Assembly: GCA_964634385.1 (NCBI GenBank)
Contig: CAZWIZ010000005.1
Coordinates: 4,849 to 28,848, forward strand
DNA length: 24,000 nucleotides
Direction: 5' to 3'
Source of the DNA: an uncultured Candidatus Izemoplasmatales bacterium
Lineage (GTDB): Bacteria; Bacillota_I; Bacilli_A; Izemoplasmatales; Izemoplasmataceae
Shown here: positions 1-12,461 of the stretch, piece by piece
How the letters are laid out: each line of letters begins with the position of its first letter
How positions within the stretch are numbered: position 1 is the stretch's first letter
Position numbers and translations under genes: made by a program
Notes under the pieces: generated by a model
What the model was told of the DNA's origin: nothing
Databases searched by the model: none
What the model saw: only the letters and a program-made list of their open reading frames with translations

Positions 1-2
1 AG

Positions 3-524
3 ACTCAAAATCATTTTAGATGTATAGATTATGTTATCAACTTGGTATTTGAACCAGTTACAGAAACGATAGTTAAAGACTTACATAAGATCTTAAAAAC
101 TGGGACAAGTGACTCAAAACTCGAATGGGTTAATGTTGGAGAATATAAACAGAGACCAAATACTGTTGGTGGTGTTGAGACATCTAAGCCAGAACAAGTC
201 GCAAAAGATATGGCAAAACTAATTGGAACTTACGAGAATAAGCCTGAATATACTTTTGAGGATATATTAGAGTTTCATTATACATTTGAGACTATTCATC
301 CTTTCCAGGATGGAAATGGGAGAGTAGGTCGTCTTATTGCCTTTAAGGAATGTTTGCGACATGGTATTGTGCCTTTCACAATTAATGAAAATATAAAACT
401 ATTTTATTATAGAGGATTAAGGGAATGGAAGAATGAACAAGGATTCTTAATTGATACTTGTAAAACAGGACAAGATAAATACATGAGATTGTTAGATATT
501 TTTGAAATTGATTATGTAGAATAA
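3..524 (+). CDS. Fic/DOC family protein, 5' end lies outside the window
   Basis: The frame stays open to the window edge, so the TTG at 42 is probably not the true start. Canonical Fic motif HPFQDGNGRVGR (HxFx[D/E]GNGRxxR). TAA stop at 522-524. Confidence 0.85.
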   Translation, partial: TQNHFRCIDYVINLVFEPVTETIVKDLHKILKTGTSDSKLEWVNVGEYKQRPNTVGGVETSKPEQVAKDMAKLIGTYENKPEYTFEDILEFHYTFETIHPFQDGNGRVGRLIAFKECLRHGIVPFTINENIKLFYYRGLREWKNEQGFLIDTCKTGQDKYMRLLDIFEIDYVE

Positions 525-540
525 ATCGAAAAAACAGATA

Positions 541-630
541 GAAACCTTCTAAGGTGTCGGCAAGGGGTTCAAATTCCTCTAAAAATGCCATTTTAAAGCA
601 CAAGCTAGCCCTTAAAGATTGGCTTTTTTT
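541..630 (+). repeat. tRNA-Arg(UCU) 3'-half-like repeat, copy A
   Basis: GAAACCTTCTAAGGtGTCGGcaaGGGGTTCaAATtCCTCtaaaAATGCCATTTTAAAGCA, then a weak AGCC/GGCT hairpin and a T-run. Starts 17 nt after the Fic stop. Confidence 0.7.
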
Positions 631-954
631 ATTTGATTTATGCTTTTTCTAACAAAAAGGATCCATTGTAATAGGGTTTTGAATGATTTTTAGCACTTGT
701 TCACACATTTCATATTAAACTGTAGAAGTACCATATTACATTTAGGAATGTTTCAGGGGAAACTAAATTATTATTTTTTTGAAAATGCCAAATAAAAATC
801 CCTGAATTTACTTGCTGATACATGATAAAAAGTGTGTATACAAGATAATAAGCGTGAACTCAATCTGCAATTGAGTAATTCAAAGTCTTCTTTCGTTCAT
901 TGAAAGAAATAATAGAAAAAAATGATTAAACATTTATTTCAAATCCAATAAGGA

Positions 955-1215
955 TGCACTGCTATGAAAAAGTGGGACCTTAGTCCCACCCCAAAGAAAA
1001 TATTGTAGTATAATAATACAAAGGGGTTGATAATATGGTGAATCAGTACAGTGTAGACTTTAAGTTAAAGATAGTTAAGATGATTCTTAATGAAAATATA
1101 AGTAAACGTGAAATAGAAAGATCATATAAAGTATCAAGGAAAGCACAAAGACGGTGAGTACACAAGTAAGAAACTGAAGGTATAAGTGGTTAGTGAGTAA
1201 GAGGAAGATAAGGAT
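955..1215 (+). mobile_element. IS3-family insertion sequence remnant (IRL-like terminus plus decayed orfA)
   Basis: TGCACTGCTATGAAAAAGTGGGAC at 955 resembles IS3/IS150-group left ends (TGxACTG...AAAAGTxGGAC). The ATG at 1035 opens MVNQYSVDFKLKIVKMILNENISKREIERSYKVSRKAQRR, an OrfA-type HTH. It then runs through in-frame TGA/TAA/TAG codons at positions where the family has W/Y/L (..RR*VHK*ETEGISG**). No orfB follows. Confidence 0.6.
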
Positions 1216-1297
1216 AAAGTAATTGCAAAAATTATTATTGTACAGTATACAACTTTCAGCAATGGGTATTATTCAATGCTTTAGCATCATTTAGTAA

Positions 1298-1341
1298 TAT
1301 AAAAATCAGCAACAAAGCCAGTTTAATGACATTGTTGCTGA
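1298..1341 (-). terminator. Rho-independent terminator of the minus-strand two-gene operon
   Basis: Perfect 10-bp inverted repeat TCAGCAACAA (1306-1315) / TTGTTGCTGA (1332-1341). On the minus strand it is followed by TTTTTATATT, just downstream of the CDS ending at 1360. Confidence 0.7.
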
Positions 1342-1359
1342 ACATCTATCCAAATACAT

Positions 1360-1938
1360 TTATTCCTGTTCCCCATATATCCTAGATATTGTATCAAATA
1401 TTGCATAATTCAAATAAACAATACTAGGAAATGAATCAGAAAAAGAATGTTTGTTAAAATCTGATTCACATAATTCATTGTTTTTATAGAAAACTAAATC
1501 AGAGTCTTTATCAGTAAGCTCATAGAAATCAATAACATAGTTAGTATTCGATGAGTGATAATTAGCAATTACAATGTAGCTACATGTACTGTTGAACAGT
1601 GCTTCAATATTTGAAGCATCATCATAATTTTCAATAAATTTATTCATATCAATAATTATGAATGTTGTATCAGATTGATAACCCGATGTTGGATTTATTG
1701 AATTAAGTTCAAAAAATCCATAATGCTCATTTAAATCTATAACATCACTATAAATATAGATATTAGTATCGTAATCTTCAAGAATTTCTATTCGATCATA
1801 ATAATTTAATGGTAATCCTTCAGGTATCTTTTTGGAAAATGGGTTTAGAGATAATAATAGTACAAATGCAATTGTAAGAAATACAGCAGTTGGAATTTGG
1901 TTTCTATCTGAAGTTTGCCTTTCTTGTTTACTATTCAT
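1360..1938 (-). CDS. Hypothetical membrane-anchored protein (one N-terminal TM segment, acidic Tyr/Asn/Asp-rich remainder)
   Basis: 192-aa ORF with hydrophobic segment IPTAVFLTIAFVLLLSL. Its start abuts the stop of the upstream gene (1938/1939), which suggests coupling. I recognise no family. Confidence 0.6.
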   Translation of the reverse strand: MNSKQERQTSDRNQIPTAVFLTIAFVLLLSLNPFSKKIPEGLPLNYYDRIEILEDYDTNIYIYSDVIDLNEHYGFFELNSINPTSGYQSDTTFIIIDMNKFIENYDDASNIEALFNSTCSYIVIANYHSSNTNYVIDFYELTDKDSDLVFYKNNELCESDFNKHSFSDSFPSIVYLNYAIFDTISRIYGEQE

Positions 1939-2733
1939 TTAGTAATATAAAGTATTCAATATAGTTTTGTAAACTACAATAGGAGTTGAAAATCTTCCGA
2001 CTTTGTCTCCAAAAGAAGTTTCCAGAGTCATTGTGTTAAAGAAATCTCCAACATTCCCATTATATCCTGCCGTCATATCTACTAAGAATAAACCTCTATT
2101 ATAGGTTAATTCATTTGCATAATCACAAGAACCAGTTACACAAATATATTCGAATGTAACATCATATATTTGGTTAGCCCCAGAATGATCAAAATCAAAC
2201 TCTAATTCGTCAACAGTAAAAGAAGTAGTTGCTGAAACTTTTGGTGTACCACTAACTTCAACAGAAACAGTGTATTCATTAGATTGTGGTTCAATCATTG
2301 GTTCTGGTTCTGCCATAACAAAACCGGAATTCGTGTATAAGTCTCCATAATAAGTGTACATATATGATCCATCAATATCAGATCTTAAATTAGCCTCATA
2401 TGTAATAGAATCATATGTATATTTGATGCCAAATAAACCAGGGATTTTGATATTCATTGGTTCAGCCTGTGCTTTTGCAATAACAAGTGCCCAATCACTA
2501 TCAGTTAAGTCTTTGTATACAGCTGTTTCGAGTCTAGACCAACCAATGATGTATGATGTACCACTTTTAACATAGTATGAATAAGATGAGTGTGTGTCGT
2601 AATCATCCTTAACTCCATACATTGTAGAATCAACATCGAATCCCATACCAGTACCTGTAGAGTCTGCACTTACATTGTTGATATTAACAAATGCTGCAGC
2701 AAAAAATAATGCGAATAATAATAATTTTTTCAT
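1939..2733 (-). CDS. Secreted hypothetical protein with Sec signal peptide
   Basis: 264-aa ORF. N-terminus MKKLLLFALFFAAAFVNINNVSA-DS looks like a signal peptide. AAGGAGA RBS lies 8 nt upstream of the ATG on the minus strand. Confidence 0.7.
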   Translation of the reverse strand: MKKLLLFALFFAAAFVNINNVSADSTGTGMGFDVDSTMYGVKDDYDTHSSYSYYVKSGTSYIIGWSRLETAVYKDLTDSDWALVIAKAQAEPMNIKIPGLFGIKYTYDSITYEANLRSDIDGSYMYTYYGDLYTNSGFVMAEPEPMIEPQSNEYTVSVEVSGTPKVSATTSFTVDELEFDFDHSGANQIYDVTFEYICVTGSCDYANELTYNRGLFLVDMTAGYNGNVGDFFNTMTLETSFGDKVGRFSTPIVVYKTILNTLYY

Positions 2734-2803
2734 AAAAATAACATCTCCTTAAGTTTTTCTTTTTTGAGATGGATTACCATCCCTTACATTTAATAATGTT
2801 TCT

Positions 2804-2832
2804 ATTTTAAAACTAATTTCGAATAATGTCAA
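2804..2832 (-). promoter_or_regulatory. Sigma-70-type promoter for the 2733..1360 operon
   Basis: The minus strand reads TTGACA (2832-2827), 17 nt, TAAAAT (2809-2804). Confidence 0.55.
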
Positions 2833-2884
2833 CTTAAATCAGAAAAATTACGCATTCGGTAACTTTCTAATAGCCCTAGGCTAA

Positions 2885-2969
2885 ACGCCCTTCTAAGGCG
2901 TCGGCCGGGGGTTCGAATCCCTCCCGGAATGCCATTAAACAATTTAACTAAGCCCTTTTGGGCTTTTTT
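2885..2969 (+). repeat. tRNA-Arg(UCU)-like element, copy B (most complete; probable tRNA pseudogene or att junction)
   Basis: Anticodon stem ACGCC/GGCGT, loop CTTCTAA (anticodon TCT), variable CGGCC, T stem GGGGG/CCCTC, T loop TTCGAAT, acceptor 3' strand CCGGAAT, discriminator G, CCA (ends 2934). Then terminator AAGCCC-TTTT-GGGCTT plus T-run (2950-2969). I could not fold the upstream sequence into a canonical D arm or acceptor 5' strand; ATTCGGT at 2854 pairs at only 5 of 7 positions. Confidence 0.8.
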
Positions 2970-2999
2970 ATTTATCTGTTTTTTCAATATTTTTTTGAA

Positions 3000-3029
3000 A
3001 AGGGCGTCGGTCACCTGTACGGCGCCCTT
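3000..3029. other. GC-rich 10-bp-stem hairpin whose 5' arm repeats the core motif AAGG(G)CGTCGG
   Basis: AAGGGCGTCG (3000-3009) pairs with CGGCGCCCTT (3020-3029), including one G-U pair, around loop GTCACCTGTA. No T-run follows on either strand. Confidence 0.6.
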
Positions 3030-3140
3030 AAACTAATTACTCTACGATAAAAAGTATTTAACTATGATTTTATTTAGTTTTTATAAATGAAAAATAGTTG
3101 GTAATGTTTCGTTATTTCGATGTTTTAATTAATAAATATG

Positions 3141-3185
3141 TTGATTTCCTCCAGATAATGGTATATAATGCAATTATCTGGAGGA
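3141..3185 (+). promoter_or_regulatory. abiE promoter embedded in a perfect 13-bp inverted repeat (candidate AbiEi operator)
   Basis: TTGATT (3141-3146), 17 nt, TATAAT (3164-3169). TCCTCCAGATAAT (3147-3159) is the exact reverse complement of ATTATCTGGAGGA (3173-3185). The right arm contains the GGAGGA RBS. Confidence 0.65.
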
Positions 3186-3192
3186 AATAGAA

Positions 3193-3807
3193 ATGATTAA
3201 AACAATTCATGATTTACTAGTTACATATGAAAACTATGCAGATCCAATTGGAAAAACAAATAGAGAGATAAAAAATGGAAATCTTTTTCCAATTGTTAAA
3301 GGTTTATATGAGACCGATATAAATACACCTGGGCTCTTTTTGTCTGCATACATTTATGGCCCATCATATTTGTCTTTTGAATATGCTCTTTATTATCATG
3401 GTTTAATTCCTGAAAAAGTAACTGTTTTTACAAATGCAACTTTTAAAAAGCAAAGGTCAAAAAAATATAAAAACAGTTTTGGTGTATTTACATATCGTGA
3501 TATTCCTCAGAATGCTTATCCTTATGGAGTTAAAGCCTATATAAATAACGGATATTCTTATATTATTGCTAGTCCTGAAAAGGCACTGTGTGACAGACTT
3601 TATATAGCACAACCTCAAACTAGTATGAAAGATCTAAAAGTATTAATTTTTGAAAATTTAAGAATTAGTGAGGAAACATTTTTAGAACTTAATTTTGGGG
3701 ATCTACTATTTTTATGTGATAAATATAGATCTACAAATATGAGATTACTAAAAAGAATAATAATAAAGGAGACAATGAATCATGACCATCCTAGAGCAAA
3801 TGATTGA
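3193..3807 (+). CDS. abiEi: AbiEi-like type IV toxin-antitoxin antitoxin / transcriptional regulator
   Basis: 204 aa. Sits directly upstream of an AbiEii-type gene and overlaps it by 26 nt. Segments such as KGLYE, SYLSFEYALYYHGLIPE and SPEKALCDRLY resemble AbiEi-family proteins as I remember them. Confidence 0.7.
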   Translation: MIKTIHDLLVTYENYADPIGKTNREIKNGNLFPIVKGLYETDINTPGLFLSAYIYGPSYLSFEYALYYHGLIPEKVTVFTNATFKKQRSKKYKNSFGVFTYRDIPQNAYPYGVKAYINNGYSYIIASPEKALCDRLYIAQPQTSMKDLKVLIFENLRISEETFLELNFGDLLFLCDKYRSTNMRLLKRIIIKETMNHDHPRAND

Positions 3808-4645
3808 AAACTATTCTATAAATACAGTAGATGATAAGAAAAATGTTATTAAAGAAATAATGCAAGAACTTACATTAGCAGGTCTTTCAAAAACTGATTT
3901 TTTTAAGAATGCAGCTTTTTATGGTGGGACTGCCTTAAGAATTTTTTACGGACTAAATCGATTTTCTGAAGATTTAGACTTTACTTTGTTAACTACGGAT
4001 AAAGATTTTACTTTAGATAAGTATATCCCAGCTTTAAAACAAGTTGTAGAATCATTAGGTCTTAAATTTGAAATAACAACCAAAGAAAAGAAAATTGATT
4101 CAAATATCAGATCAGCCTTTTTAAAAGGAAATACTAAAGAGCAGTTTTTAATTTTTTACCTTGATTCTAATCAAAATAATTTAATCTCTCATAATGAAAA
4201 AATTAAAATTAAATTTGAGATTGATATTAATCCGCCTGAGTTTGCAATAACTGAATTAAAGTTTCGTTTACTACCATTTCCTTATCAAGTAAAAGTATAT
4301 GATAAACCATCTTTATTCGCAGGTAAAGTTCATGCTGTTATTGCAAGAAGTTGGAAAACAAGAGTAAAGGGTCGAGATCTCTACGATTATATATTTTATT
4401 TATCATCAAATACAAAGATTAATTTAAAACATTTGGAAGCAAGGTTAAGACAAACAAATACTATAATAGAAGAAGAACGGTTAACATTGAAAGTACTTAT
4501 TAATATTTTAAATGACCGCTTCGATATAATTGATTTTAATGAAGCGAAGAAAGATGTTTTACCATTTATTAATGATATAGATACCCTGGATTTGTGGAGT
4601 GCAGTATTTTTTAAGAATATTACAAAGAATTTAAGAGGTGAATGA
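3782..4645 (+). CDS. abiEii: AbiEii/AbiGii family nucleotidyltransferase toxin
   Basis: 287 aa. The signature FYGGTALRIFYGLNRFSEDLDF matches the AbiEii hallmark GGTAL...R.SEDLDF. Later KGRDLYD block. TGA stop. Confidence 0.85.
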   Translation: MTILEQMIENYSINTVDDKKNVIKEIMQELTLAGLSKTDFFKNAAFYGGTALRIFYGLNRFSEDLDFTLLTTDKDFTLDKYIPALKQVVESLGLKFEITTKEKKIDSNIRSAFLKGNTKEQFLIFYLDSNQNNLISHNEKIKIKFEIDINPPEFAITELKFRLLPFPYQVKVYDKPSLFAGKVHAVIARSWKTRVKGRDLYDYIFYLSSNTKINLKHLEARLRQTNTIIEEERLTLKVLINILNDRFDIIDFNEAKKDVLPFINDIDTLDLWSAVFFKNITKNLRGE

Positions 4646-4733
4646 AAGTCGTATGAGTTATTATCAGTTTGTTATAATACAATTATGATATATAAGTAAA
4701 CAAAGGAAGGCTTTTGTAAAACTTAAATAATTT

Positions 4734-4849
4734 CAAGAAACCTTCTAAAGCGTCGAACTGAGGTCTTTAGATTCTTTCGGAATGGCATTTTAAAGCAAAT
4801 ACTAAGCCATTTACTGGTTTGGTTATTTTTTTTACTCCGACCGTTGTAG
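4734..4849 (+). repeat. tRNA-Arg(UCU) 3'-half-like repeat, copy C (long form)
   Basis: TCAAGAAACCTTCTAAaGCGTCG... with a decayed T arm (GGTCTTTAGATTCTTTC), then CGGAATGgCATTTTAAAGCAAATA. A long hairpin follows, AAATACTAAGCC/GGTTTGGTTATTT, plus a T-run and the CGACCGTTGTAG extension shared with copy E. Confidence 0.75.
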
Positions 4850-4907
4850 TATTATGTCGTTAGTTATCGTCTTTTCTTCAAACCTGCCAAATCATGCCAA
4901 CGACATG

Positions 4908-4936
4908 TTGATTATTACCTCTTTTGATATTATAAT
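4908..4936 (+). promoter_or_regulatory. Sigma-70-type promoter of the HTH gene
   Basis: TTGATT (4908-4913), 17 nt, TATAAT (4931-4936). GAGGTGA RBS at 4943-4949. Confidence 0.6.
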
Positions 4937-4954
4937 ATTGTTGAGGTGATATAA

Positions 4955-5392
4955 ATGTATAACATTAAGGATATAATGACAATTACAAATTTAAGTGAAC
5001 GAACAATAAGAAGATATCTAAAAGAAGGAAAATTAGATGGTACAAAAGTTGGTGGAGTATGGAGATTTACTGATGCTCAACTAGAGAATTTTTATGGATA
5101 TAAAGAAGCAATGAAAAAAATAAGAAAAGAAGCTACACAACAAGTTGTTGATTTTATTAATATGCCAAATCCAGAAAAGCAAAATACTAGAGTTTGCACA
5201 ATGATTGATCTTATAAATGAAGACGATGTAATTGAAGATGTTAAGCAAGCAATCATGAATGAATGCAACAATGCAACTGATACTATGACAATGAAATTTC
5301 TAAAAGAACAAAACAACTTTCGTTTTATACTCATTGGGTCTTTGGAATTTATTCATAATGTAACTAAAAAAGTATATGAAATAGTAAATTAA
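4955..5392 (+). CDS. Helix-turn-helix protein, excisionase/MerR-type N-terminal domain (HTH_17-like)
   Basis: 145 aa. The N-terminus IMTITNLSERTIRRYLKEGKLDGTKVGGVWRFTDAQLENF is typical of excisionase-family DNA-binding domains. I do not recognise the C-terminal 90 aa. Confidence 0.65.
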   Translation: MYNIKDIMTITNLSERTIRRYLKEGKLDGTKVGGVWRFTDAQLENFYGYKEAMKKIRKEATQQVVDFINMPNPEKQNTRVCTMIDLINEDDVIEDVKQAIMNECNNATDTMTMKFLKEQNNFRFILIGSLEFIHNVTKKVYEIVN

Positions 5393-5433
5393 AACATTCT
5401 ATTTTTGATTTCCAATCTATAAATTTCTAAAAA

Positions 5434-5516
5434 GAAACCTTCTAAGGCCTCGGGCTGGGGTTCGAATCCCTCCTAGAACAACATGAAATCAAAAAAGTCC
5501 ACCTTAGTGGACTTTT
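5434..5516 (+). repeat. tRNA-Arg(UCU) 3'-half-like repeat, copy D
   Basis: GAAACCTTCTAAGGCcTCGGgCtGGGGTTCGAATCCCTCC, with intact T loop and stem, then a divergent acceptor part TAGAACAACA. Bidirectional terminator GTCCAC-CTTA-GTGGAC flanked by an A-run and a T-run, between convergent genes. Confidence 0.8.
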
Positions 5517-5533
5517 CTAAATATTTAGTATGT

Positions 5534-6400
5534 TCAATTGTTTAAACATGTGGCGCCTGAATATATGTCATAATCTAAGTCTTCAAATATATATGCAAGA
5601 ATATCGTCGAAATTATCTACACCATCATATGTTAACCGGAAAATAAGATTTTGATATTGTGCATAGTACTTTGTGTTTGAAGATTGAGGAAGATAAAAAT
5701 CACATTGATTATTGAATATTTGTACTGCATCGTCTTGATTATATGTTTCTATTATAAGGACTGAGAAATAGAGTTCAGAATTATATAGTTTAATTGCACT
5801 TTGTAATGGAATGTTTAAACTGGTATATGTATATTCCCCTTCAATGAGAATATCTCTATCATATTCAAACATAATCTCATCCATTCTAGTCATTAAACTT
5901 GTAGTAAAAGGGTGATACTCTAATTCATTAGTGTAGTGAAGGTGATATTGGTAGTTTCCTTCAAAATCATATTGTCTTAATAATCCTGGAAATGTGGAAT
6001 CAACTGAATGATACGCTTCTAAAATATAATGATCAAGTGTATATACAAATATAATATTGTTTTCATTTAAACTATATTCATTTCGCTCAGTGAAGAAACT
6101 ATTTTGTGCATCACCATCACTAATTTCATATATATATCCATAATCATCTGATCCGTTGTCATTGAAGGTATAAATGTTATTGAACTTAATACTCTTATCA
6201 TTGTAAATCTGATTAAAATCATCAAGTTCTTCTTCATAAGACATTGAAGTTAAATCAATTCCCAAATTAACAGAAAAATCTGCTGACTCAAGAGTAGAAA
6301 TAAATAATGATTCTTCAGCACTTGGGTCTTTGGTACAAGAACATAGTAATAATACAGACAGTAGTAATAACAGAGTTTTCTTTATATAATTACCATTCAT
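5534..6400 (-). CDS. Putative lipoprotein, acidic Tyr/Asn/Asp-rich
   Basis: Start moved to the ATG at 6400, preceded by GGAGG 5 nt upstream on the minus strand. This gives MNGNYIKKTLLLLLSVLLLCSC, a lipobox-like sequence. The 55-codon upstream extension in the ORF track overlaps the preceding gene and has no RBS. Confidence 0.65.
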   Translation of the reverse strand: MNGNYIKKTLLLLLSVLLLCSCTKDPSAEESLFISTLESADFSVNLGIDLTSMSYEEELDDFNQIYNDKSIKFNNIYTFNDNGSDDYGYIYEISDGDAQNSFFTERNEYSLNENNIIFVYTLDHYILEAYHSVDSTFPGLLRQYDFEGNYQYHLHYTNELEYHPFTTSLMTRMDEIMFEYDRDILIEGEYTYTSLNIPLQSAIKLYNSELYFSVLIIETYNQDDAVQIFNNQCDFYLPQSSNTKYYAQYQNLIFRLTYDGVDNFDDILAYIFEDLDYDIYSGATCLNN

Positions 6401-7013
6401 ATGATCCTCCAGAAATTGCAAAATATATGGTCGAACTGTCATAGAAATTTTCGAAGTATTCATCAAATTGTTGACTAGTATATGCATTCCAATCCATAAT
6501 TGATGGAAAAACCATAGTATAATAAACACTAGGAAGAGTACCTTGTTTACCTGCCCAACTCCCATTATTTAGTTGAATCATAAAGTGATTAGTTTGATTG
6601 CTTACATAAGATGCATAAACATTGGCTTTCGTATTTATGTCATCTTCTATAATAGAAGCTTTCCCGAAATAATTAATCTCGATATGGAAAAGGTCATAGT
6701 AGTTCAAAGTAATATTGGTATTATCTGAATTGCTATTTGGTAATCCTACAGAGTAATTACTTTTTTCTGTTGTATATTTTGTTGTTTTAGAATCGTAGGT
6801 TAGATCTTGATTGTATTCAATATATTCTGTCTTGTCAAAATAGTGTATTGGGGTTGAATAATACTCGTACCTGTAAGTGTTATTACCTAAATCATAGATT
6901 TTTCTATTCGCAGTACGTAACTCAATTATTTCTTCTTGGTACTCAACTATTGCGAATACTTGGTTGAAATTTAAAAATAGTAATATAAAAAATAATAATA
7001 TAATTTTTTTCAT
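6390..7013 (-). CDS. Secreted hypothetical protein with Sec signal peptide
   Basis: 207 aa. N-terminus MKKIILLFFILLFLNFNQVFA. AGGAAGGGGA RBS. Overlaps the downstream lipoprotein gene by 11 nt. Confidence 0.65.
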   Translation of the reverse strand: MKKIILLFFILLFLNFNQVFAIVEYQEEIIELRTANRKIYDLGNNTYRYEYYSTPIHYFDKTEYIEYNQDLTYDSKTTKYTTEKSNYSVGLPNSNSDNTNITLNYYDLFHIEINYFGKASIIEDDINTKANVYASYVSNQTNHFMIQLNNGSWAGKQGTLPSVYYTMVFPSIMDWNAYTSQQFDEYFENFYDSSTIYFAISGGSYEW

Positions 7014-7077
7014 AGATTCCCCTTCCTTGAAAAAATATCTCCCTGTGGGATAAATTTCTAATTATCCCTATATATTT

Positions 7078-7106
7078 ATTATCGCTTAATCTAAATACTA
7101 AGTCAA
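7078..7106 (-). promoter_or_regulatory. Sigma-70-type promoter for the 7013..5534 operon
   Basis: The minus strand reads TTGACT (7106-7101), 17 nt, GATAAT (7083-7078). The resulting 5' UTR contains the palindrome GGGATAA-N8-TTATCCC (7047-7068). Confidence 0.5.
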
Positions 7107-7116
7107 TAAGTAACGT

Positions 7117-7233
7117 CAAGAAACCTTCTAAGGCTTCGGCCTGGGGGCTATGATCCCTCCCGGAATGTCATTTTAAAGCAAATAACTAAGCCGTTTATTG
7201 GTTTGGTTATTTTTTTACCCTCGACCGTTGTAG
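7117..7233 (+). repeat. tRNA-Arg(UCU) 3'-half-like repeat, copy E (long form)
   Basis: TCAAGAAACCTTCTAAGGCtTCGGCCtGGGGGctAtGATCCCTCCCGGAATGtCATTTTAAAGCAAATAACTAAGCC. Loop, then GGTTTGGTTATTT (13-bp stem with two G-U pairs), a T-run and CGACCGTTGTAG. Confidence 0.8.
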
Positions 7234-7362
7234 CTTTAAATTATTATTTACACACCAATATTACTGTGATAAATTGAATATAGGGAGATGGTGTTATAGA
7301 ATGGGGAGACTTGATATTTGAAGACATAGATAGCAATCATTATGATGGCTATTGAAAACCAA

Positions 7363-7446
7363 GAAAACTTCTAAAGAGAAAACCTTGGTTTGAATTACTA
7401 CGGAAGGGTATATAAAACGAAAAGTTCTTTAAATAGGAGTTTTTTT
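7363..7446 (+). repeat. Degenerate tRNA-Arg-like repeat, copy F
   Basis: GAAAACTTCTAAAG...GGTTTGAATTACTACGGAAGGGTA parallels GAAACCTTCTAAGG...GGTTCGAATCCCTCCCGGAATGCCA. Ends in a T-run. Confidence 0.45.
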
Positions 7447-7451
7447 ATGAC

Positions 7452-7480
7452 TTGACAATTTTAATAGCACATGCTAAAAT
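7452..7480 (+). promoter_or_regulatory. Sigma-70-type promoter of the nucleotidyltransferase pair
   Basis: TTGACA (7452-7457), 17 nt, TAAAAT (7475-7480), with an upstream TGc extended -10. Confidence 0.6.
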
Positions 7481-7525
7481 AAGTTTAAATTAATAGTATT
7501 AAAATAAAGATAAAAGGTGAACATT

Positions 7526-8026
7526 ATGAATAAAAAAGAACTTGAAAAAAGAATGATAGAACTAGATACTATTACATACGACTTATATCCTGGCTTAACA
7601 TTTGAATGTGTTATTGTTGGAGGGGGCGCGCTACTAATTAAAGATATAATTAGTAGAGGTACTTTGGATGTAGATGTTTTAGAAGTATCTAAGGAAGTTG
7701 AAGAGTTGTTTGCTGGTTTTGATTTTAACACTAGAGTAAAAGCTGTTTTAGATTGTTTTCCATATAATTATGAAGATAGAATCGAATTAGTGAGTTTAAA
7801 GACTAAGAGTATTTTGTACTATACCCCATCTATTGAGGATTTGATAGTTTCTAAACTATATGCTTATAGAGGTAAAGATATAGAGGATTTAGAAAAAATT
7901 AAGAAAAGCAAGAAATATAATCGAATTCTCTTAGATAGGATTGTGACAGAAGCAAGACTCTCTGCAATTACTGAGAGAAGGTACCTAGAAATGGTAGATT
8001 TATATAACGGATTTTTTAAGGAGTGA
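7526..8026 (+). CDS. Minimal nucleotidyltransferase-fold protein (DUF6036/MNT-like)
   Basis: VIVGGGALLIKDIISRGTLDVDVLE gives the GG..A...T.D.D NTase pattern. Later IEDLIVSKLYAYRGKDIEDL. ATG at 7526 preferred over GTG at 7517 because of the AAGGTGA RBS spacing. Confidence 0.65.
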   Translation: MNKKELEKRMIELDTITYDLYPGLTFECVIVGGGALLIKDIISRGTLDVDVLEVSKEVEELFAGFDFNTRVKAVLDCFPYNYEDRIELVSLKTKSILYYTPSIEDLIVSKLYAYRGKDIEDLEKIKKSKKYNRILLDRIVTEARLSAITERRYLEMVDLYNGFFKE

Positions 8027-8030
8027 TTCT

Positions 8031-8561
8031 ATGAAATTAAAAACATTTAAAAGTTTTCTTGTTGATTACGTGAAGGATATGAATCCAGAGCGATCTTTAA
8101 GTTTGTTTAAAAACGAGAAGTACGTTCTTAATGATAAAAGATTATTAAATGTATATTCATTTTATGTATTATTTAATAGCAACGTAGAAAAAACACTTCT
8201 AAGTAAGAAGGAAAAACTTCCTGAATTATATGACATGTATAGATTATATAAGGAGAAGTATAAAGGGTTTACTTATGGAAATCTTTCTAAAAAGGTAGAT
8301 ATGTTAGATGGATTTGATGAATTGAAACAATTATATAACTCATACAAAAACTTAGTTGTTAATAGGAATTTGCTTCTCAAAAAGCTGTATCATAATAGGA
8401 TAACTAATATTAAGAAGGAAAAGAGTATTACTAATTATAGAATATATACAGATTTAAAACTTAATCATGGGAATACTAATGATTACCTAAAGAATGAAAA
8501 GTATGAAAAACTTTCAATCAATAAGGTAAAATCTATACTTGAATATGTGACTTCAGCATAA
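8031..8561 (+). CDS. Hypothetical protein, partner of the nucleotidyltransferase (possible C-terminal HTH)
   Basis: 176-aa ORF starting 4 nt after the upstream TGA stop. Lys/Asn-rich. The C-terminal segment SITNYRIYTDLKLNHGNTNDYLKNEKYEKLSINKVKSILEYV looks HTH-like by eye only. Confidence 0.55.
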   Translation: MKLKTFKSFLVDYVKDMNPERSLSLFKNEKYVLNDKRLLNVYSFYVLFNSNVEKTLLSKKEKLPELYDMYRLYKEKYKGFTYGNLSKKVDMLDGFDELKQLYNSYKNLVVNRNLLLKKLYHNRITNIKKEKSITNYRIYTDLKLNHGNTNDYLKNEKYEKLSINKVKSILEYVTSA

Positions 8562-8563
8562 TA

Positions 8564-8638
8564 GAAATCTTCTAAGGCGTTTCCTTCCTTTTCTAAGTGT
8601 CCACTAAACGGTACAGTTAGTTTTGGTTTTCTATTTTT
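8564..8638 (+). repeat. Degenerate tRNA-Arg-like repeat, copy G
   Basis: GAAATCTTCTAAGGCGTtTCC... begins 3 nt after the TAA stop at 8559-8561. The 5' 17 nt match the family well. The T-arm part is decayed and ends in T-rich sequence. Confidence 0.5.
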
Positions 8639-8670
8639 GTGATAAAATTAAATTCATAGGAAGTGATTAC

Positions 8671-9036
8671 ATGAATCCATTTACTGAAATATTTGTTTGG
8701 GCTTTAGTTCTCACGATAATACCAATTATTAGTGAAGGATTGGTGTTTTTTAGATTAGTAGATAAAGATGTGAGATTATATTTCCATATTTATTGTGGAC
8801 TAAGAAGAGGAGCAAATATTCTTATTTTCATTTCATTAATGTATCTCATTGGAAATTTTTTTCTACCAATTGTAATTATGCTATTTATTGAGATTATAAT
8901 GGGGATTATTCTCTATAAAAGAATCTTGATAAAGATTTCGCTAAAAAGTTTAGTTATTTATACTACGGTTGCTAATTTAATATCATGGGGAATTATATAT
9001 ATTATTTTTAAGTTTTATTTTTTGAATAAAATATAA
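8671..9036 (+). CDS. Small integral membrane protein (about 4 TM segments)
   Basis: ATG at 8671 preceded by an AGGAAGTG RBS. The ORF-track start at 8623 lies inside repeat copy G. Hydrophobic throughout. Confidence 0.55.
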   Translation: MNPFTEIFVWALVLTIIPIISEGLVFFRLVDKDVRLYFHIYCGLRRGANILIFISLMYLIGNFFLPIVIMLFIEIIMGIILYKRILIKISLKSLVIYTTVANLISWGIIYIIFKFYFLNKI

Positions 9037-9280
9037 TGAATATAGATCTTTATTTCAATTGATTTATGCTTTTTTATAAAAAAATATTTAAAAAGAAAGA
9101 TAATAACTTTTATTAAAGAATATATTTAGTATAATTACGGATAGGTTATTAAATACAGTAAAAACACATACAATAATATAGTTTTGTGTTATTATTGATT
9201 GAAATTAAAAACATGTATGTTCAAAATGAAATTTCTTTGATTGAATGTATGTTAACAAATATAAAGGAGAAATCAAATTA

Positions 9281-10606
9281 ATGACATTTCAAGAATTAAA
9301 TATTATCGAACCTATTTTAAAGGCATTGAAGCTTAAAGAGTATTTAGTGCCAACTCCGATTCAATCTGAATCTATCCCTGTTTTACTACAAAGAAAAGAT
9401 ATACTAGGTAGTGCGCAAACAGGGACAGGAAAAACCGCAGCTTTTGCGATTCCTATTTTACAAAATCTATATTTAGAAAATCATCGTAAATCGTCAAAAA
9501 GAATTATCAAAGCTCTAGTTTTAGCACCGACACGAGAACTTGCATTGCAGATTCATGATAACTTTTTAGAATATGGTAAAAACCTTAATTTAAGAACAAC
9601 AGTAATTTATGGGGGAGTTCCACAATCAAAACAAGTAAGGATTCTAAATCAAGGAGTAGATATTTTGGTAGCAACTCCGGGTAGATTACTCGATTTAGTC
9701 CAACAAAGAAAAATGACTCTTTCAAATGTATCTTACCTAGTGTTAGATGAAGCAGATAGAATGTTGGATATGGGATTTGTAAAAGACGTAAAGAAAATTG
9801 TAGCGATGGTTAAAAAAGAAAGACAGACAATGTTCTTTTCTGCAACAATGCCAAAGGCAATTGTAAGCCTATCAAATGAAATGCTACATAATCCTATAAG
9901 AGTAATGGTAACTCCTGAAGAAGAGACGATTGATAAAATCAAACAGTCTGTTTATTTCGTTGGAAAAAAGAAAAAAATTGATTTACTAGTTGATCTTTTA
10001 AAGAAGAGAGATTTAAAATCAGTTTTGGTGTTTTCGAGAACTAAACATGGTGCAAACCATATTGTAAAACTTTTAGATCAATTGAATATACCTGCAACAG
10101 CAATTCATGGGAATAAATCACAAAGTGCTAGACAAAAAGCATTAGCAGCTTTTAAATCGAAAAAAATACGAGTATTAGTTGCGACTGATATCGCGGCAAG
10201 AGGAATTGATGTAGATGAATTATCTCATGTTATAAATTTTGATTTACCGGAAGTTCCGGAAACATATATTCATCGTATTGGAAGAACAGGACGTGCAGGA
10301 CTAGGTGGGTTTGCCATCTCGTTTTGTTCCAAAGATCAAGCAGACTTACTAAGAGATATTCAAAAACACATCAATATGAAAATACCGGTTATGAAAGATT
10401 CTGTGTATGCTATTGATTTAATAGATATTCCAATTGAAACAAAGAATCAAAATTCTCCAAAAAAGAAAAGACCAAATACTCAAGGAAAACAAAATAAATC
10501 ATATTCTCGTACACGTTCGAAACGTAAAAAGACAGAACCAAAAAACTTTTCAAAACATGATAGTAAGAATCAGTCTAAAAATTATAAAAATAGAAACAAA
10601 CGATAG
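9281..10606 (+). CDS. DEAD-box ATP-dependent RNA helicase with basic C-terminal tail
   Basis: Motifs: Q (PTPIQ), I (AQTGTGKT), Ia (PTRELA), Ib (TPGRL), II (DEAD), III (SAT), VI (HRIGRTGRAG). ATG at 9281 follows an AAAGGAGA RBS. The upstream extension from 9245 was rejected. Confidence 0.92.
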   Translation: MTFQELNIIEPILKALKLKEYLVPTPIQSESIPVLLQRKDILGSAQTGTGKTAAFAIPILQNLYLENHRKSSKRIIKALVLAPTRELALQIHDNFLEYGKNLNLRTTVIYGGVPQSKQVRILNQGVDILVATPGRLLDLVQQRKMTLSNVSYLVLDEADRMLDMGFVKDVKKIVAMVKKERQTMFFSATMPKAIVSLSNEMLHNPIRVMVTPEEETIDKIKQSVYFVGKKKKIDLLVDLLKKRDLKSVLVFSRTKHGANHIVKLLDQLNIPATAIHGNKSQSARQKALAAFKSKKIRVLVATDIAARGIDVDELSHVINFDLPEVPETYIHRIGRTGRAGLGGFAISFCSKDQADLLRDIQKHINMKIPVMKDSVYAIDLIDIPIETKNQNSPKKKRPNTQGKQNKSYSRTRSKRKKTEPKNFSKHDSKNQSKNYKNRNKR

Positions 10607-10610
10607 ATAA

Positions 10611-10693
10611 GAAACTTTCTAAGATGTCTATAAAGATTAAAATTTATTACAGAATGGCAACAAACACTAAAAAAAGCCAATTTGGCTTTTTTT
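10611..10693 (+). repeat. Degenerate tRNA-Arg-like repeat, copy H
   Basis: GAAACTTTCTAAGatGTC...CAGAATGGCA parallels GAAACCTTCTAAGGCGTC...CGGAATGCCA. Begins 5 nt after the helicase TAG stop. Terminator AAAAAAGCC-AATTT-GGCTTTTTTT. Confidence 0.5.
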
Positions 10694-10911
10694 AAAAATC
10701 TACACTACCCTATAGTAATGCTTTTTTGCACTTGTTTAACACTAAAAAAGATTGAATAAGATTTCAACGTAATATTTACAAATGAAAAATAGTTAGATAT
10801 TTTTCATTGATTAATACATAGTTTTATGCAAATTGATATTTTAACTCCTTGGCTTTTATCAGCTTTTAAATAGCATTATATTATTAATAATAAAAAATAA
10901 TAAATATTTTA

Positions 10912-10940
10912 TCAGCAATTTAGTATTAATTTGTTATAAT
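10912..10940 (+). promoter_or_regulatory. Extended -10 promoter driving the structured leader
   Basis: TGtTATAAT (10932-10940) with a weak -35 (TCAGCA, 10912-10917). Confidence 0.5.
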
Positions 10941-10946
10941 ATGATT

Positions 10947-11237
10947 TAGTGGTGCGCCGGTTCAGTTGTACATATATAACTGGTGTAAATCTAGTCTAGT
11001 AAGACATCGAAAGTCGCTAATAGTTAGCCTTAGAACTGAAGCTGTGAGGTAAGGTTTAAGCGTAGGTAAGCATCCAATCTTAAAAACTAAACTGTATGTG
11101 AATATTTGGTAAACTAAGAATATATGAAGAGCCTATTGTCTTAATAAGGCACGTTGGGTTCTGTGAGGGGCTTATAAGACTTTCCTCACGAGGTAAAGAA
11201 ACGAGGTGAAAGTCGAGAATAGTCTACTCGACATATT
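10947..11237 (+). ncRNA. Candidate structured 5' leader or cis-regulatory RNA of unknown class
   Basis: GC-enriched relative to its surroundings, with several stems. CAGTT/AACTG near the 5' end. GTGAGG (11163-11168) / CCTCAC (11184-11189) competes with GACTTTCCTC (11178-11187) / GAGGtgAAAGTC (11203-11214). GTCGAG/CTCGAC (11211-11232) abuts the ATG. No protein-coding signal. Confidence 0.45.
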
Positions 11238-11876
11238 ATGAAAAAAATACAGAAACCGATTTATAATTTTCAACTTGATAATTATGAAGGAAACTTACAA
11301 AAACCAGAACTAACTGATATTATTGAGTATTCAATAATTAATGACAAATCTATGAATAATAAATACGATTTTAGAATTGTTTTTGATTGTTGTAAAATGG
11401 AAAGAGTAACAATGAATAAAAATGAATTTAAACGTAGTGAATTTTTTGATTGTACATTTGAAAATTGTGATTTCTCAAACAATAGTTTTATAAATTCCAC
11501 CTTTATTAGATGCCAGTTTATTAACTGTAGATTTACAGGAAGTCATTTTATTGATAGTTTTTTGAAACATATCGCATTTAAAGATTGTATTGGTAACCTT
11601 CTCGACATGGCTGAGTGTAAATTAGAATTTGTTGAATTTAGCAACATGAATTTACTAGAATCAAATTTCTATACAAATAAGATGAAACAAGTATTTTTTA
11701 ACGAAGTAAATTTAGAAAAATCAACATTTTATGAAACGTCTTTAAAAAATGTTGATTTAAGGACATGCGATATATATGATTTAAAAATAGATGATAAAAG
11801 CATAAGAGGTTCTATTATTTCTTCTTTTCAAGCCCCTCATGTTTGTTATTTGTTGGGAATAATAGTAAAGGACTAA
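11238..11876 (+). CDS. Pentapeptide-repeat protein
   Basis: 212 aa with consecutive A(D/N)LxX-type pentapeptides (FFDCTFENCDFSNNSFINSTFIRCQFINCRFTGSHFIDS...NLEKSTFYETSLKNVDLRTCDI). No obvious SD upstream. Confidence 0.85.
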   Translation: MKKIQKPIYNFQLDNYEGNLQKPELTDIIEYSIINDKSMNNKYDFRIVFDCCKMERVTMNKNEFKRSEFFDCTFENCDFSNNSFINSTFIRCQFINCRFTGSHFIDSFLKHIAFKDCIGNLLDMAECKLEFVEFSNMNLLESNFYTNKMKQVFFNEVNLEKSTFYETSLKNVDLRTCDIYDLKIDDKSIRGSIISSFQAPHVCYLLGIIVKD

Positions 11877-12122
11877 GAGGTGTATTATAAATAGTTATTT
11901 AGCGTATGCATTGGTAATTAGACTATCAATAATCATATAGAAGAAGAGATATTGTTATTTTTTCATATGCAATTTTGAATTGAAAATCGATGTTCTATTT
12001 TCATGGATATCAAAAAAATCTTTCAAAAGTAGCTCTTTTACAATAAATAAATTAAATCTTATATCATGGGAAAATAAATGATATAATATTATTGAAACAG
12101 TCAATTATAAAGGAGTTATATT

Positions 12123-12461
12123 ATGAGAGGATTACGAATTGGAGTAACATTCGTTATTGTATTAGTTTTATTCCTTTTAAGTGTTTTTCAAATGCAATTA
12201 AGAGGATATGAGAAATTAGTAAGAGTTAAAGAATGGACTATTTATTATAAAAGTGAAGAAGGATGTATTGAACAAAAGGATATATTTTATTCAGATGATG
12301 AATATGATTATTACTTTAATTGTGTTTTAAGTGATAAATATTATATTATAAAAAGAGGATTTGAAGAATATTCATTAGTTTATGCCCTTGAAAATGGGTA
12401 TATTGAGATAACTGAAATAGAAGGTATTATTGATTTTCAAATAGCTTCAAATACAAATTGA
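12123..12461 (+). CDS. Small hypothetical protein with N-terminal TM anchor
   Basis: 112-aa ORF with AAGGAG RBS and hydrophobic segment IGVTFVIVLVLFLLSVF. Confidence 0.55.
   Translation: MRGLRIGVTFVIVLVLFLLSVFQMQLRGYEKLVRVKEWTIYYKSEEGCIEQKDIFYSDDEYDYYFNCVLSDKYYIIKRGFEEYSLVYALENGYIEITEIEGIIDFQIASNTN

Follow-up and report, generated by a model that had tools for sequence, protein, structure and literature searches.

The tycheposons of Prochlorococcus are tyrosine-recombinase elements that carry a replication module together with cargo and integrate at a specific tRNA gene, and in the resulting islands successive integrations push older elements deeper, with partial tRNAs left between the elements and degenerate remnants found farther in (Hackl et al., bioRxiv 10.1101/2020.12.28.424599). 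In the ssrA islands of Dehalococcoides, a single-copy tRNA-like gene is followed downstream by more than 12 direct repeats of its own 3′ end, a conserved motif that is not part of the target stands just upstream of each repeat, and the tandem islands include some with an integration module beside attL as well as 15 without one, the latter proposed by the authors to be cis-mobilizable (McMurdie et al. 2011, PMC3146451). Here we describe a locus of comparable architecture in a 24,000-nt stretch of DNA from an uncultured Candidatus Izemoplasmatales bacterium (GenBank assembly GCA_964634385.1, contig CAZWIZ010000005.1, positions 4,849–28,848 of the forward strand), which is called the window throughout and to which all coordinates without a contig name refer. 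Its + strand carries repeated copies, lettered A–H by position, of the 3′ half of tRNA-Arg(UCU) joined to a terminator, and between them lie cassettes of one or two genes. These repeats are very probably attachment-site (att) scars of serial integration at the tRNA-Arg(UCU) gene, and the window is the tRNA-distal, oldest and now static end of a gene-collecting hotspot. As a whole, the locus is a tandem array of integrative elements and cis-mobilizable elements (CIMEs) at a tRNA gene, like the tycheposons and the Dehalococcoides islands, with notable features in its density, the very small size of its units and a site made of half a tRNA, cut at the anticodon loop, plus a terminator. No description of this locus was found in the literature on Izemoplasma/Izimaplasma integrases and partial-tRNA cassette arrays.

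The resemblance to tycheposons is architectural only. Both systems comprise tRNA-targeted tyrosine-recombinase elements, serial displacement and partial tRNA copies as separators, but the host here belongs to another phylum, the target is tRNA-Arg(UCU) with a presumed crossover at the anticodon loop, a rolling-circle Rep takes the place of the primase/helicase, and the units, most of which have no integrase, are far smaller and denser (0.17–2.8 kb; up to 14 copies in 16 kb). The Dehalococcoides islands likewise have repeats downstream of the target gene, units with and without an integration module, and a motif before each repeat. There, however, a serine recombinase acts where a tyrosine recombinase is found here, the repeat is 20 bp at the T loop of the transfer-messenger RNA (tmRNA) as opposed to a 45-nt half-tRNA plus terminator starting at the anticodon loop, and the islands span several kb and hold rdhA operons, whereas the present cassettes carry single defence or secreted-protein genes.

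The CIME concept, cited in PMC3146451 and PMC5704250, also fits the units without an integrase. Such elements are att-flanked, have neither integrase nor transfer genes, are thought to be deletion derivatives of integrative elements, and can be moved when an integrase-bearing element adjoins them; the window cassettes A–B, B–C, C–D and D–E are of this make-up, each being bounded by copies and free of any recombinase. Streptococcal CIMEs and their accretion at the attachment sites of integrative and conjugative elements were reportedly described by Pavlovic in 2004 and Bellanger in 2011, with mobility shown experimentally, whereas for the present cassettes it is a property that we infer, and the drivers here are small Rep-encoding elements and not conjugative ones. 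Finally, the sublocation classes of tRNA integration that Williams is said to have distinguished in 2002 (Nucleic Acids Res 30:866) include an anticodon-loop class, to which the present site is similar in that the crossover segment would be the 7-nt anticodon loop and the gene would be rebuilt with a complete 3′ part of the tRNA brought by the element, but from which it differs in that the left arm of most sites, AGAAAC, is no mimic of the anticodon-stem strand, such mimicry being confined to the AAATCGCC/AACGCC class.

The intact tRNA gene and the half-tRNA site

With up to three mismatches allowed, TTCTAAGGCGTCGG occurs at six + strand sites of the window (547, 2891, 4743, 5440, 7126 and 8570) where 0.48 are expected, and none of 100 shuffles reaches six. 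Copies A, B, C, D and E are homologous across about 100 nt according to a repeat finder and a MAFFT alignment, and all five share the order junction, tRNA-like part, short spacer, hairpin and T-run. Against a profile model built from 34 distinct copies of many genomes they score E-values of 1e-20 (B), 8e-20 (E), 9e-18 (A), 7e-16 (D) and 4e-13 (C), and the same search gives no comparable match on the − strand of the window. The tally for the window is thereby five certain copies (A–E), one probable (G) and two possible ones (F and H). An initial annotation of the stretch had counted eight copies sharing the full consensus; the array, its strand, the hairpin and T-run and copies A–E stand, while G has kept the junction, loop and stem only, H is doubtful and F is not significant. 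ARAGORN searches of the window and of contigs L001–L006 yield no tRNA, and at E ≤ 1 no known RNA family of Rfam fits the unit, the sole match at a unit being an 18-nt T arm of the tmRNA family in copy B.

The gene from which the copies derive lies to the left. A 264-aa protein encoded in the window was located on 12 contigs of other assemblies that are 99.9% identical to the window, among them L001, which shows this identity to window positions 1–12733, and these assemblies extend the locus by 4.9 kb leftwards to reveal two more perfect copies, R2 and R1. A walk beyond L001 via a 94-aa protein (P0001) at its end leads to contigs L035 and L036, both with the order FeoB, a 609-aa sulfatase/LtaS-like gene, an intact tRNA-Arg(TCT), a 1.5-kb cassette and copy R1. 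The intact 77-nt tRNA gene occupies positions 8982–9058 of L035/L036, approximately 6.5 kb left of the window and in the same orientation as the copies. Since L036 runs at 100% identity into L001, the array is contiguous from the true tRNA to the window, and there is no integrase in that variant. In L035, which comes from a different sample, R1 is followed by a different terminator tail and then by a tyrosine integrase gene reading back towards R1 (10718–11536), of which 272 aa precede the contig end and which contains the motifs ...HKWRHTFATNF...GH...Y. A third variant, seen in L003 and L039, has different genes after R1, and the tRNA-proximal part of the locus is thus polymorphic in the population. 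Leftward extension of the contig, as the initial annotation had advised, has thus yielded both the intact tRNA-Arg(UCU) and the recombinase that it sought. Its statement that no recombinase lies in the window also stands, as ORF (open reading frame) and Pfam searches of the window proteins found no integrase, but the implied absence nearby was wrong in view of the integrase behind R1 in L035.

The true gene can be written as ...GAGCAACGCC-CTTCTAA-GGCGTCGGCCGGGGGTTCGAATCCCTCCCGGAATGCCA, or, divided into its segments, as GTTTCGGTAGCTCAGCTGGATAGAGCAACGCC-CTTCTAA-GGCGT CGGCC GGGGGTTCGAATCCCTC CCGGAAT G CCA (L035 and 10 other genomes), and against this gene the proposed parse of the copies as tRNA positions 32–76 is exact. 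Throughout 47 distinct non-tRNA junctions, the similarity to the tRNA begins at the first base of the anticodon loop, except where the left arm mimics the stem. The loop itself is 99% conserved, and the left arm at positions −6 to −1 matches AGAAAC at 82%, compared with 41% for the same measure at −12 to −7. In the window this sharp break holds for A, C, D and E, as had been claimed for seven of the eight copies, but B also keeps the stem strand ACGCC. Three classes of left arm can be distinguished: the first is mostly AGAAAC, with AAAGAC and ACAGAC in HR1 and ZiA1, giving the consensus A-R-A-R-A-C; the second, GGGGACGATATTA, is the right end of the integrase element of HR2 and L016; and the third, AAATCGCC or AACGCC, mimics the anticodon-stem strand and is found at R1, R2, B and in L007. 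The identity to the resident gene can be complete, since seven copies of Ca. Izimaplasma HR2 match its tRNA gene at 45 of 45 positions, and the anticodon stem, which differs by species (GGCGT; GGCAT or GCCAT; GCCGT), is in the copies the version of the resident tRNA.

The sequences after the CCA fall into a few terminator families, T1–T5, and the same families turn up next to cargo of unrelated kinds. For each of T1, T3, T4 and a T2-like type, one genome or more has such a tail immediately after the true tRNA; T5 was seen only after copies. This distribution fits a model in which the gene receives its new 3′ half and its terminator from the incoming element. Farther downstream, 48–85 nt past the CCA, a second motif resembling the tRNA core is present in 16 of 70 distinct tails, compared with 3.5 expected at p ≤ 0.05. 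It comes in two forms, one corresponding to tRNA positions 21–35 (TAGAGCAACGCCCTT) and the other to positions 38–54 (AAGGCGTCGGYCGGGGG), the latter mostly in tails that adjoin integrase genes; at +50 to +85 the tail motifs read TAGAGCAACGCC.. and GGCGTAGGTCGGGGG, and a motif of the form-2 class is located at +66 to +83 in the integrase-linked tails of HR2, ZiA1, HR1, CS24 and L016. The AGAAAC arm and the tail motifs are candidate integrase-binding sites, possibly accessory ones. A palindromic R''-L''/L'-R' organisation is not present in the sites, and neither terminal inverted repeats nor target-site duplications were found at the units.

A further conserved motif, (CA)TTATAGGTCTCCAACACCGTT, precedes some of the junctions or hairpins by 15–40 nt (L001 17175–17150; L003 12735–12710; HR2rc ~8790 and ~17280; L016 ~3705; L027, reverse strand, ~2889) and resembles a tRNA anticodon arm with the anticodon CCA. 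L027 also holds the 3′ half of another tRNA (...ACTCCAACACCGTCTACGGGGGTTCGATCCCCTCCGCCCCTGCCA) after non-tRNA sequence, and a second tRNA may play the same part as tRNA-Arg(UCU).

The same layout across Izemoplasmatales

When the exact 45-nt 3′ half was scanned for in one genome per species, 17 stretches were recovered, ten of them with a complete tRNA-Arg(TCT) gene and 16 from records titled Izemoplasmatales, Mycoplasmatota or Bacilli. The seventeenth, L007 (CAZFHC010000029.1), is a 2.8-kb contig binned as a Candidatus Woesearchaeota archaeon; it carries an Izemoplasmatales tRNA-Arg(TCT) with a T3-type tail and a second copy of the AAATCGCC type, and is most likely a misbinned bacterial contig. 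A scan of JGI metagenomes with the junction pattern gave 11 loci, including L026, a metagenome contig with an array of five copies. The layout that recurs is an LtaS-like gene, the tRNA, a 4–17 kb element encoding an integrase, a rolling-circle Rep and an XRE regulator, and then up to 14 same-strand 3′ halves separated by mostly one-gene cassettes in units of 0.17–2.8 kb. The upstream LtaS-like gene and tRNA are also found in HR2, HR1, ZiA1, L011, L021, L022 and L028, an intact tRNA at the array end and oriented as the copies is also seen in HR2, HR1, ZiA1, CS24, L028 and L032, and the copies found in HR2, HR1, ZiA1, CS24, L026 and the window are all located downstream of the tRNA gene and, within each array, on a single strand.

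The fullest array is that of the HR2 draft genome, in which a single contig carries all seven exact 45-nt copies, every one on the same strand and downstream of the tRNA gene. Here the LtaS-like gene and the tRNA are followed by genes for a tyrosine integrase of 287 aa (HR2 3739–4602), encoded on the opposite strand, a Viral_Rep-type protein of 301 aa and an XRE regulator, after which 14 more same-strand copies are spread over 16 kb between mostly single + strand genes of 78–584 aa; such genes are present in 12 of the 13 intervals between copies. In contig 24 of CSMAG_300 (CS24), the tRNA is followed by an integrase, a Rep_trans protein, an XRE regulator and then a copy, and farther on by a 6.8-kb radical-SAM/ABC cassette and a copy with a second integrase behind it. 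In HR1, for which the genome is complete (CP009415.1), the tRNA is followed by an integrase/Rep_trans element of 16.8 kb and by six copies, one of which likewise has a second integrase behind it, and Ca. Izimaplasma ZiA1 (PPCM01000001.1) has the tRNA, an integrase element and four copies. Cassettes devoid of an integrase can also stand directly behind the true tRNA, as an AbiEi/AbiEii pair does in L032 and a single 1033-aa gene in L028.

The integrases found at these sites are about 285 aa in length, match Pfam Phage_integrase at 1e-30 to 1e-35 and belong to one family with 33–53% pairwise identity, to which approximately 100 protein-database clusters annotated as XerC, XerD or tyrosine-type recombinase are related at E < 1e-35. 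Their position is constant: all eight integrases examined, namely those of L035, HR2, HR1 (two), ZiA1, CS24 (two, one of them 282 aa long) and L016, lie no more than 1.2 kb downstream of the tRNA or a copy and read towards it. Among the viral contigs of IMG/VR, neither the 45-nt half-tRNA nor the junction pattern gave any match, and no free, packaged or circular form was found.

Genomes differ at the repeat boundaries by whole elements. In the metagenome-assembled genome (MAG) L021 the true tRNA and its T1 tail are joined directly to the Fic cassette, at 92% identity to L001 across the tail and the start of Fic, whereas in the window lineage the T1 tail follows R2, then come a group II intron and Fic, and further cassettes lie between R2 and the tRNA. 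The integrase element adjacent to the tRNA in L020 is the third one in the CS24 array, with 100% identity over 190 nt, and L035 differs from L036/L001 by the integrase element at R1, which implies that internal copies are used, either for targeting or as partners in excision. A lipoprotein cassette shared by HR2 and L017 (82% identity) is situated between different neighbours in the two, and the homology spans from just past the upstream T-run/terminator to AGAAAC. The initial annotation had suggested comparing relatives for cassettes present or absent exactly at repeat boundaries; such differences are displayed by L021, the L020/CS24 pair and L035, although the window part itself does not vary.

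The distal part of the array, on the other hand, is old. ZiA1 and the window have DUF6036, its 176-aa partner and the helicase at an equivalent distal position, with amino acid identities of 76%, 64% and 68%, respectively, and this part has therefore been inherited vertically. In the window lineage, the copies become poorer away from the tRNA, with R1, R2 and B perfect, 6–15 changes in the remaining ones among A–E, and F–H barely recognisable.

Copies and cargo of the window

The window opens with the 3′ part of a + strand Fic gene (3–524; 311 aa in full; Pfam Fic 2e-19), which resembles SoFic according to PADLOC (PDC-S04, 7e-107). Copy A (540–636, + strand) starts 15 nt past its stop codon and consists of AGAAAC (540–545), CTTCTAA (546–552) and a decayed 3′ half up to the CCA at about 590, after which the spacer TTTTAAAGCA leads into a terminator of the T1 type; this tail equals the one behind the true tRNA in HR2, CS24 and L021. 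Cassette A–B (1360–2733) holds two − strand genes of 192 and 264 aa that match no family and have a promoter-like site at 2832–2804. In its non-coding stretch, a short + strand ORF at 1035–1160 (MVNQYSVDFKLKIVKMILNENISKREIERSYKVSRKAQRR, ending in a stop codon) looks like the N-terminal helix-turn-helix (HTH) part of an IS3-family OrfA.

Copy B (2853–2975, + strand) has a perfect 45-nt 3′ half at 2890–2934 and, by terminator scan, a T4-type terminator at 2950–2965 followed by a T-run. It has retained the 5′ strand of the anticodon stem, ACGCC (2885–2889), and upstream of it TTCGGTAACT at 2855–2864 matches tRNA positions 3–12 (p = 0.03); TTCGGTAACT and AACGCC together (2855–2889) suggest a decayed full-length tRNA copy whose D region is 7 nt longer. 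About 70 nt past its CCA, inside a G+C-rich hairpin, lies the secondary core-like motif GGGCGTCGGTC (3001–3027, + strand), of which 3001–3013 matches tRNA positions 40–47 (p = 0.03) and belongs to form 2 of the tail motifs. The ninth fragment suspected at 3000 is accordingly real but of a different kind, a second copy of tRNA positions 40–47 and not a further unit. The tail of B is related to that of CS24 12140 and L020, where an integrase follows, and would represent the arm next to the integrase in an element that no longer has its integrase gene. Behind it, cassette B–C (3193–4645, + strand) contains AbiEi (3193–3807) and AbiEii (3782–4645), with PADLOC E-values of 1e-57 and 3e-105 and a Pfam match to AbiEii as well, and a promoter-like site at 3141–3169.

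Copy C (4736–4835, + strand) begins 92 nt past the AbiEii stop codon; the AGAAAC-CTTCTAA core is intact, the T arm has decayed, and the T2-type tail consists of a terminator at 4801–4823 and the motif ACTCCGACCGTTGTAG. Cassette C–D (4955–5392, + strand) encodes a 145-aa MerR/HTH_17 protein preceded by a promoter-like site at 4908–4936. In copy D (5433–5524, + strand) AGAAAC-CTTCTAA is followed by a 3′ half with the T arm intact and the acceptor and CCA decayed, and the terminator scan indicates that its bidirectional terminator (5489–5520) also ends the − strand gene at 5534–6565. This gene belongs to cassette D–E (5534–7013, − strand), in which two genes of about 288–343 and 207 aa match no family and have a promoter-like site at 7106–7078. 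Copy E (7119–7218, + strand) combines AGAAAC-CTTCTAA with a 3′ half that has a 1-nt insertion and an altered T loop, and with a T2-type tail containing ACCCTCGACCGTTGTAG; C and E are 83% identical over 129 nt.

The remaining copies are less distinct. The possible copy F (7361–7450, + strand), judged by eye, is very decayed (AGAAAACTTCTAAAG ... GGTTTGAATTAC ... CGGAAGGGTAT, then a T-run) and with a profile E-value of 5.4 is not significant alone; E and F would enclose an "empty" cassette of 240 nt, comparable to an empty 167-nt interval between two copies in HR2. Cassette E/F–G (7517–8561, + strand) carries a DUF6036 nucleotidyltransferase (Pfam 7e-32) and its 176-aa partner, with a promoter-like site at 7452–7480. 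The probable copy G (8562–8640, + strand) stands 3 nt past the stop codon of that partner, has kept AGAAAT-CTTCTAA-GGCGT and lost the T arm, and has a profile E-value of 0.0045 over 19 nt (8562–8580); in ZiA1, the homologous DUF6036 and 176-aa cassette has a good copy at the equivalent place. The distal end of the array (8623–10606, + strand) comprises a 137-aa membrane protein and a DEAD-box helicase, and 5 nt past the helicase stop codon lies the doubtful copy H (10610–10695, + strand; AGAAAC-TTTCTAAG ... CAGAATGGCA; terminator at 10667–10695), which reaches E = 0.86 with the 34-copy profile and 0.0067 with a model that contains the terminator. No copy is found behind the syntenic helicase gene of ZiA1, nor was a decayed terminal copy found at 11880–12120 of the window, where synteny with L017 resumes.

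The distances of 3–92 nt between a stop codon and the following copy, given earlier for Fic, AbiEii, the HTH gene, the nucleotidyltransferase partner and the helicase, are confirmed, and Pfam and PADLOC bear out the cargo as a Fic protein of the PDC-S04/SoFic-like type, AbiEi/AbiEii, a MerR-type HTH protein and the DUF6036 nucleotidyltransferase pair. The first gene of each window cassette is preceded by a high-scoring promoter-like site, and a terminator follows each att site; in this A+T-rich window the number of promoter-like sites is not above that of shuffles (72 vs 73), and only the position of the best-scoring ones is informative.

Several further features accompany the array. A group II intron, with a GTGTGAC... 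start and a reverse transcriptase (RT)/maturase ORF, is located on the − strand of L001 at 15150–13290, some 2.4–0.6 kb left of window position 1, directly after the T-run of the R2 terminator and upstream of Fic, and is missing at that spot in L021; bacterial class C introns typically insert just behind terminators. The RT ORF has an in-frame TGA in L001, L002, L003 and L005, which was considered as a mark of genetic code 4 and rejected as a nonsense polymorphism because L004 holds an intact ORF of 423 aa (RVT_1 and GIIM). Beyond the array, a stretch of about 280 nt starting with GTGCG (10952–11232) shows sub-threshold matches to Rfam group II intron domains, 31.9 bits for D1–D4 at 10977–11091 (gathering score 49) and 30.6 bits for D5/D6 at 11127–11232 (gathering score 40), and 5 nt separate its end from the start codon (11238) of a pentapeptide-repeat gene. 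A complete intron would be much longer, and the stretch could be a relic that has lost its interior, or something different. A second repeat family, the hairpin AGAAGTCATTTACTGGCTTCT(T)n, is found behind several small genes in the tRNA-proximal part (L001 ~17560, 17140, 16650, 16280 and 15460; L003 13340 and 12700), the gene content of L001 and L003 switches exactly at these hairpins, and a related hairpin (AAGCCATTTAYTGGTTTGG) is present in the T2-type tails of C and E (4801–4823 and 7176–7205). Finally, a 54-aa ORF (MAKLISKL.KAKEEYL.AVAEIED...) lies antisense to the array directly before each AAATCGCC-type junction, at R1 and R2 (L001 15281–15445 and 16955–17119; L035 10349–10513), within a 270-nt repeat that is 82% identical between R1 and R2. 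It has no PADLOC match and may encode a small recombination directionality factor, or be nothing at all.

Origin and meaning of the array

Serial integration, the option listed first in the initial annotation, is the explanation favoured by the intact tRNA some 6.5 kb to the left, the placement of all eight integrases and the boundary differences between genomes. Izemoplasmatales carry small integrative elements of 4–17 kb whose genes include those for an XRE regulator, a rolling-circle Rep (Rep_trans or Viral_Rep type) and a tyrosine integrase about 285 aa long. According to the proposed model, the attachment site of such an element (attP) would begin with a left arm that is not tRNA (A-R-A-R-A-C; AGAAAC in the window lineage), continue with CTTCTAA and the rest of tRNA-Arg(UCU) through the CCA, and then with the element's own spacer and intrinsic terminator, possibly with accessory motifs, ahead of the integrase gene that reads back to the site. 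The element would be spliced in by strand exchange within the anticodon loop of the chromosomal tRNA-Arg(UCU) or beside it, the exact position being one that we infer, and the tRNA would be rebuilt from its own 5′ half and the 3′ half and terminator of the element, while the previous 3′ half and terminator would be moved to the far end of the element, behind its right end (AGAAAC). Repeated insertion at the tRNA or at an internal copy would yield an array of one orientation, from which the driver modules (integrase, Rep and XRE) would later be lost, either by excision between the tRNA and an internal site, as may have happened at the decayed internal copy HR2 7563 between such a module and a cargo gene, or by deletion, for which the tail of B and a class-2 right end without an integrase at HR2 17320 are likely examples. 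What remains would be the cargo of one or two genes (Fic, AbiE, HTH, nucleotidyltransferase pair and secreted proteins) with its own promoters between decaying att copies, the displaced tRNA terminators now also ending the transcripts of the upstream cassettes. The cassettes without an integrase would thus have arisen from, or been carried by, integrase-bearing elements, and their status is probably CIME-like.

Several observations speak against this account or at least against its simplest form. An excised circle, an empty site or an integration event has never been directly observed, and the argument is built on comparative sequence alone. The order of the window cassettes is identical in at least 14 contigs from at least nine samples, the window itself has no integrase, and there appears to be no sign that these particular cassettes ever moved one by one; when alternative contexts for the HTH and AbiEii proteins were sought as a sign of recent movement, the same neighbours were found on all contigs. 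The decay gradient in HR2 is rough and not monotonic, the tRNA-near copies 7563 and 9830 being decayed, which shows that simple stacking with the newest element next to the tRNA is an incomplete description. Copy B seems to resemble a decayed complete tRNA and not a 3′ half, which a simple integration model would not predict, and the cassettes adjacent to the tRNA in L032 and L028 need either a precise loss of the driver or insertion in trans.

In a more active picture, the one- and two-gene units are mobile cassettes with one AGAAAC-CTTCTAA-3′-half site per circle, moved in trans by the integrases of other elements and re-inserted at the tRNA or any internal copy, so that the array would be an actively shuffled gene store and not a graveyard. 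Both pictures give the sites the same origin and differ on present activity and on where the cassettes came from. It is conceivable, though rather improbable, that the tRNA-Arg(UCU) locus is a working integron-like capture system of this type, and we regard the trans-mobilization of cassettes with a single half-tRNA site and tRNA-core tail motifs as a tentative proposal. In its favour, in 15 decayed copies that had not been found via the junction pattern, the loop and 3′ stem are tRNA-identical at 167 of 180 positions (93%) compared with 382 of 495 (77%) for the rest (Fisher p ~1e-6), and their AGAAAC arm is 83% conserved compared with 41% for the six preceding bases, although this test is open to detection and alignment bias. 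The occupation of the internal copy R1 by an integrase element in one population variant, the lipoprotein cassette between different neighbours in HR2 and L017, the integrase-less cassettes directly behind the true tRNA in L032 (the AbiE pair) and L028, and the mostly single + strand genes in 12 of 13 HR2 intervals point the same way. In contrast, the window cassettes keep one order across every assembly, the DUF6036 cassette and the helicase hold their position between genera, many copies are decaying with T arms deleted and acceptors lost, no free circle is found in viral contigs, and the class-2 right end at HR2 17320 and the integrase-type tail of B, both without an integrase, indicate deletion and not capture. 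In common with integrons proper, the array runs in one direction, its cassettes are mostly single genes with a recombination site between them, a tyrosine recombinase stands at the insertion end and the cargo is rich in toxin-antitoxin genes and small proteins of no known function, but the sites are sequence-conserved half tRNAs and not folded palindromes of the attC type, the integrase arrives on the incoming element with Rep and XRE and is not fixed next to attI, and the cassettes have promoter-like sites and terminators of their own, two of those in the window being inverted. Neither of two features that define integrons, attC-type sites and promoterless cassettes beside a resident intI, is present. 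The integron-like option of the initial annotation therefore survives as an analogy, on account of the R1 element and the better-kept core, but not as membership, given the sites, the own promoters and terminators, the element-borne integrase and the fixed cassettes.

The two other options raised at the outset fare worse. A dispersed repeat derived from a tRNA in the manner of miniature inverted-repeat transposable elements or short interspersed nuclear elements, spread by transposition or retroposition and dense here by chance, would agree with a short unit of about 100 nt that is tRNA-derived and present in many copies, but all copies are at one locus, on one strand and downstream of the tRNA (in HR2, all seven exact ones), the units lack terminal inverted repeats and target-site duplications, the left boundary always falls on the same tRNA base, and the copies track the species-specific anticodon stem of the resident tRNA. 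For the genomes examined this explanation is rejected on the single-locus, single-strand distribution and the constant boundary, and we consider it exceedingly improbable. Scarcely more credible is a functional tRNA-like 3′ untranslated region (UTR), in which the half would recruit RNase P/Z or a CCA-adding enzyme or stabilise the upstream mRNA. Five copies do start 3–92 nt past + strand stop codons and end in a terminator, and are probably transcribed as 3′ UTRs. However, the lack of a 5′ acceptor strand rules out an acceptor/T minihelix, and the predicted folds consist of the T hairpin and the terminator alone; the T-stem changes in 46 copies include 18 that break pairs and three that are compensatory; C, G and HR2 12787 retain the junction while their T arm has been deleted or scrambled; the genes of the two inverted window cassettes cannot use the unit as a 3′ UTR; and Rfam offers no family beyond the 18-nt T-arm match. 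The missing acceptor strand, the uncompensated T-stem changes and the loss of the T arm where the junction is kept lead us to reject this reading as well.

A striking repeat pattern is thus explained without a new RNA or a new kind of element, and the main gene-acquisition hotspot is identified in a little-studied, free-living relative of the mycoplasmas, where it gathers abortive-infection and toxin-antitoxin genes (Fic, AbiE, HigBA-like and the nucleotidyltransferase pair) along with small secreted proteins. Half-tRNA copies behind tRNA-Arg(UCU) also provide a rule for finding such islands in metagenome bins. If small cassettes are indeed moved in trans, the locus would represent a compact natural form of cassette exchange with a simple tyrosine recombinase and a tRNA-derived site with a core of 18–20 nt, and if the array is a working platform, it would be a second, independently evolved one that stocks defence and surface-protein genes in a wall-less lineage.

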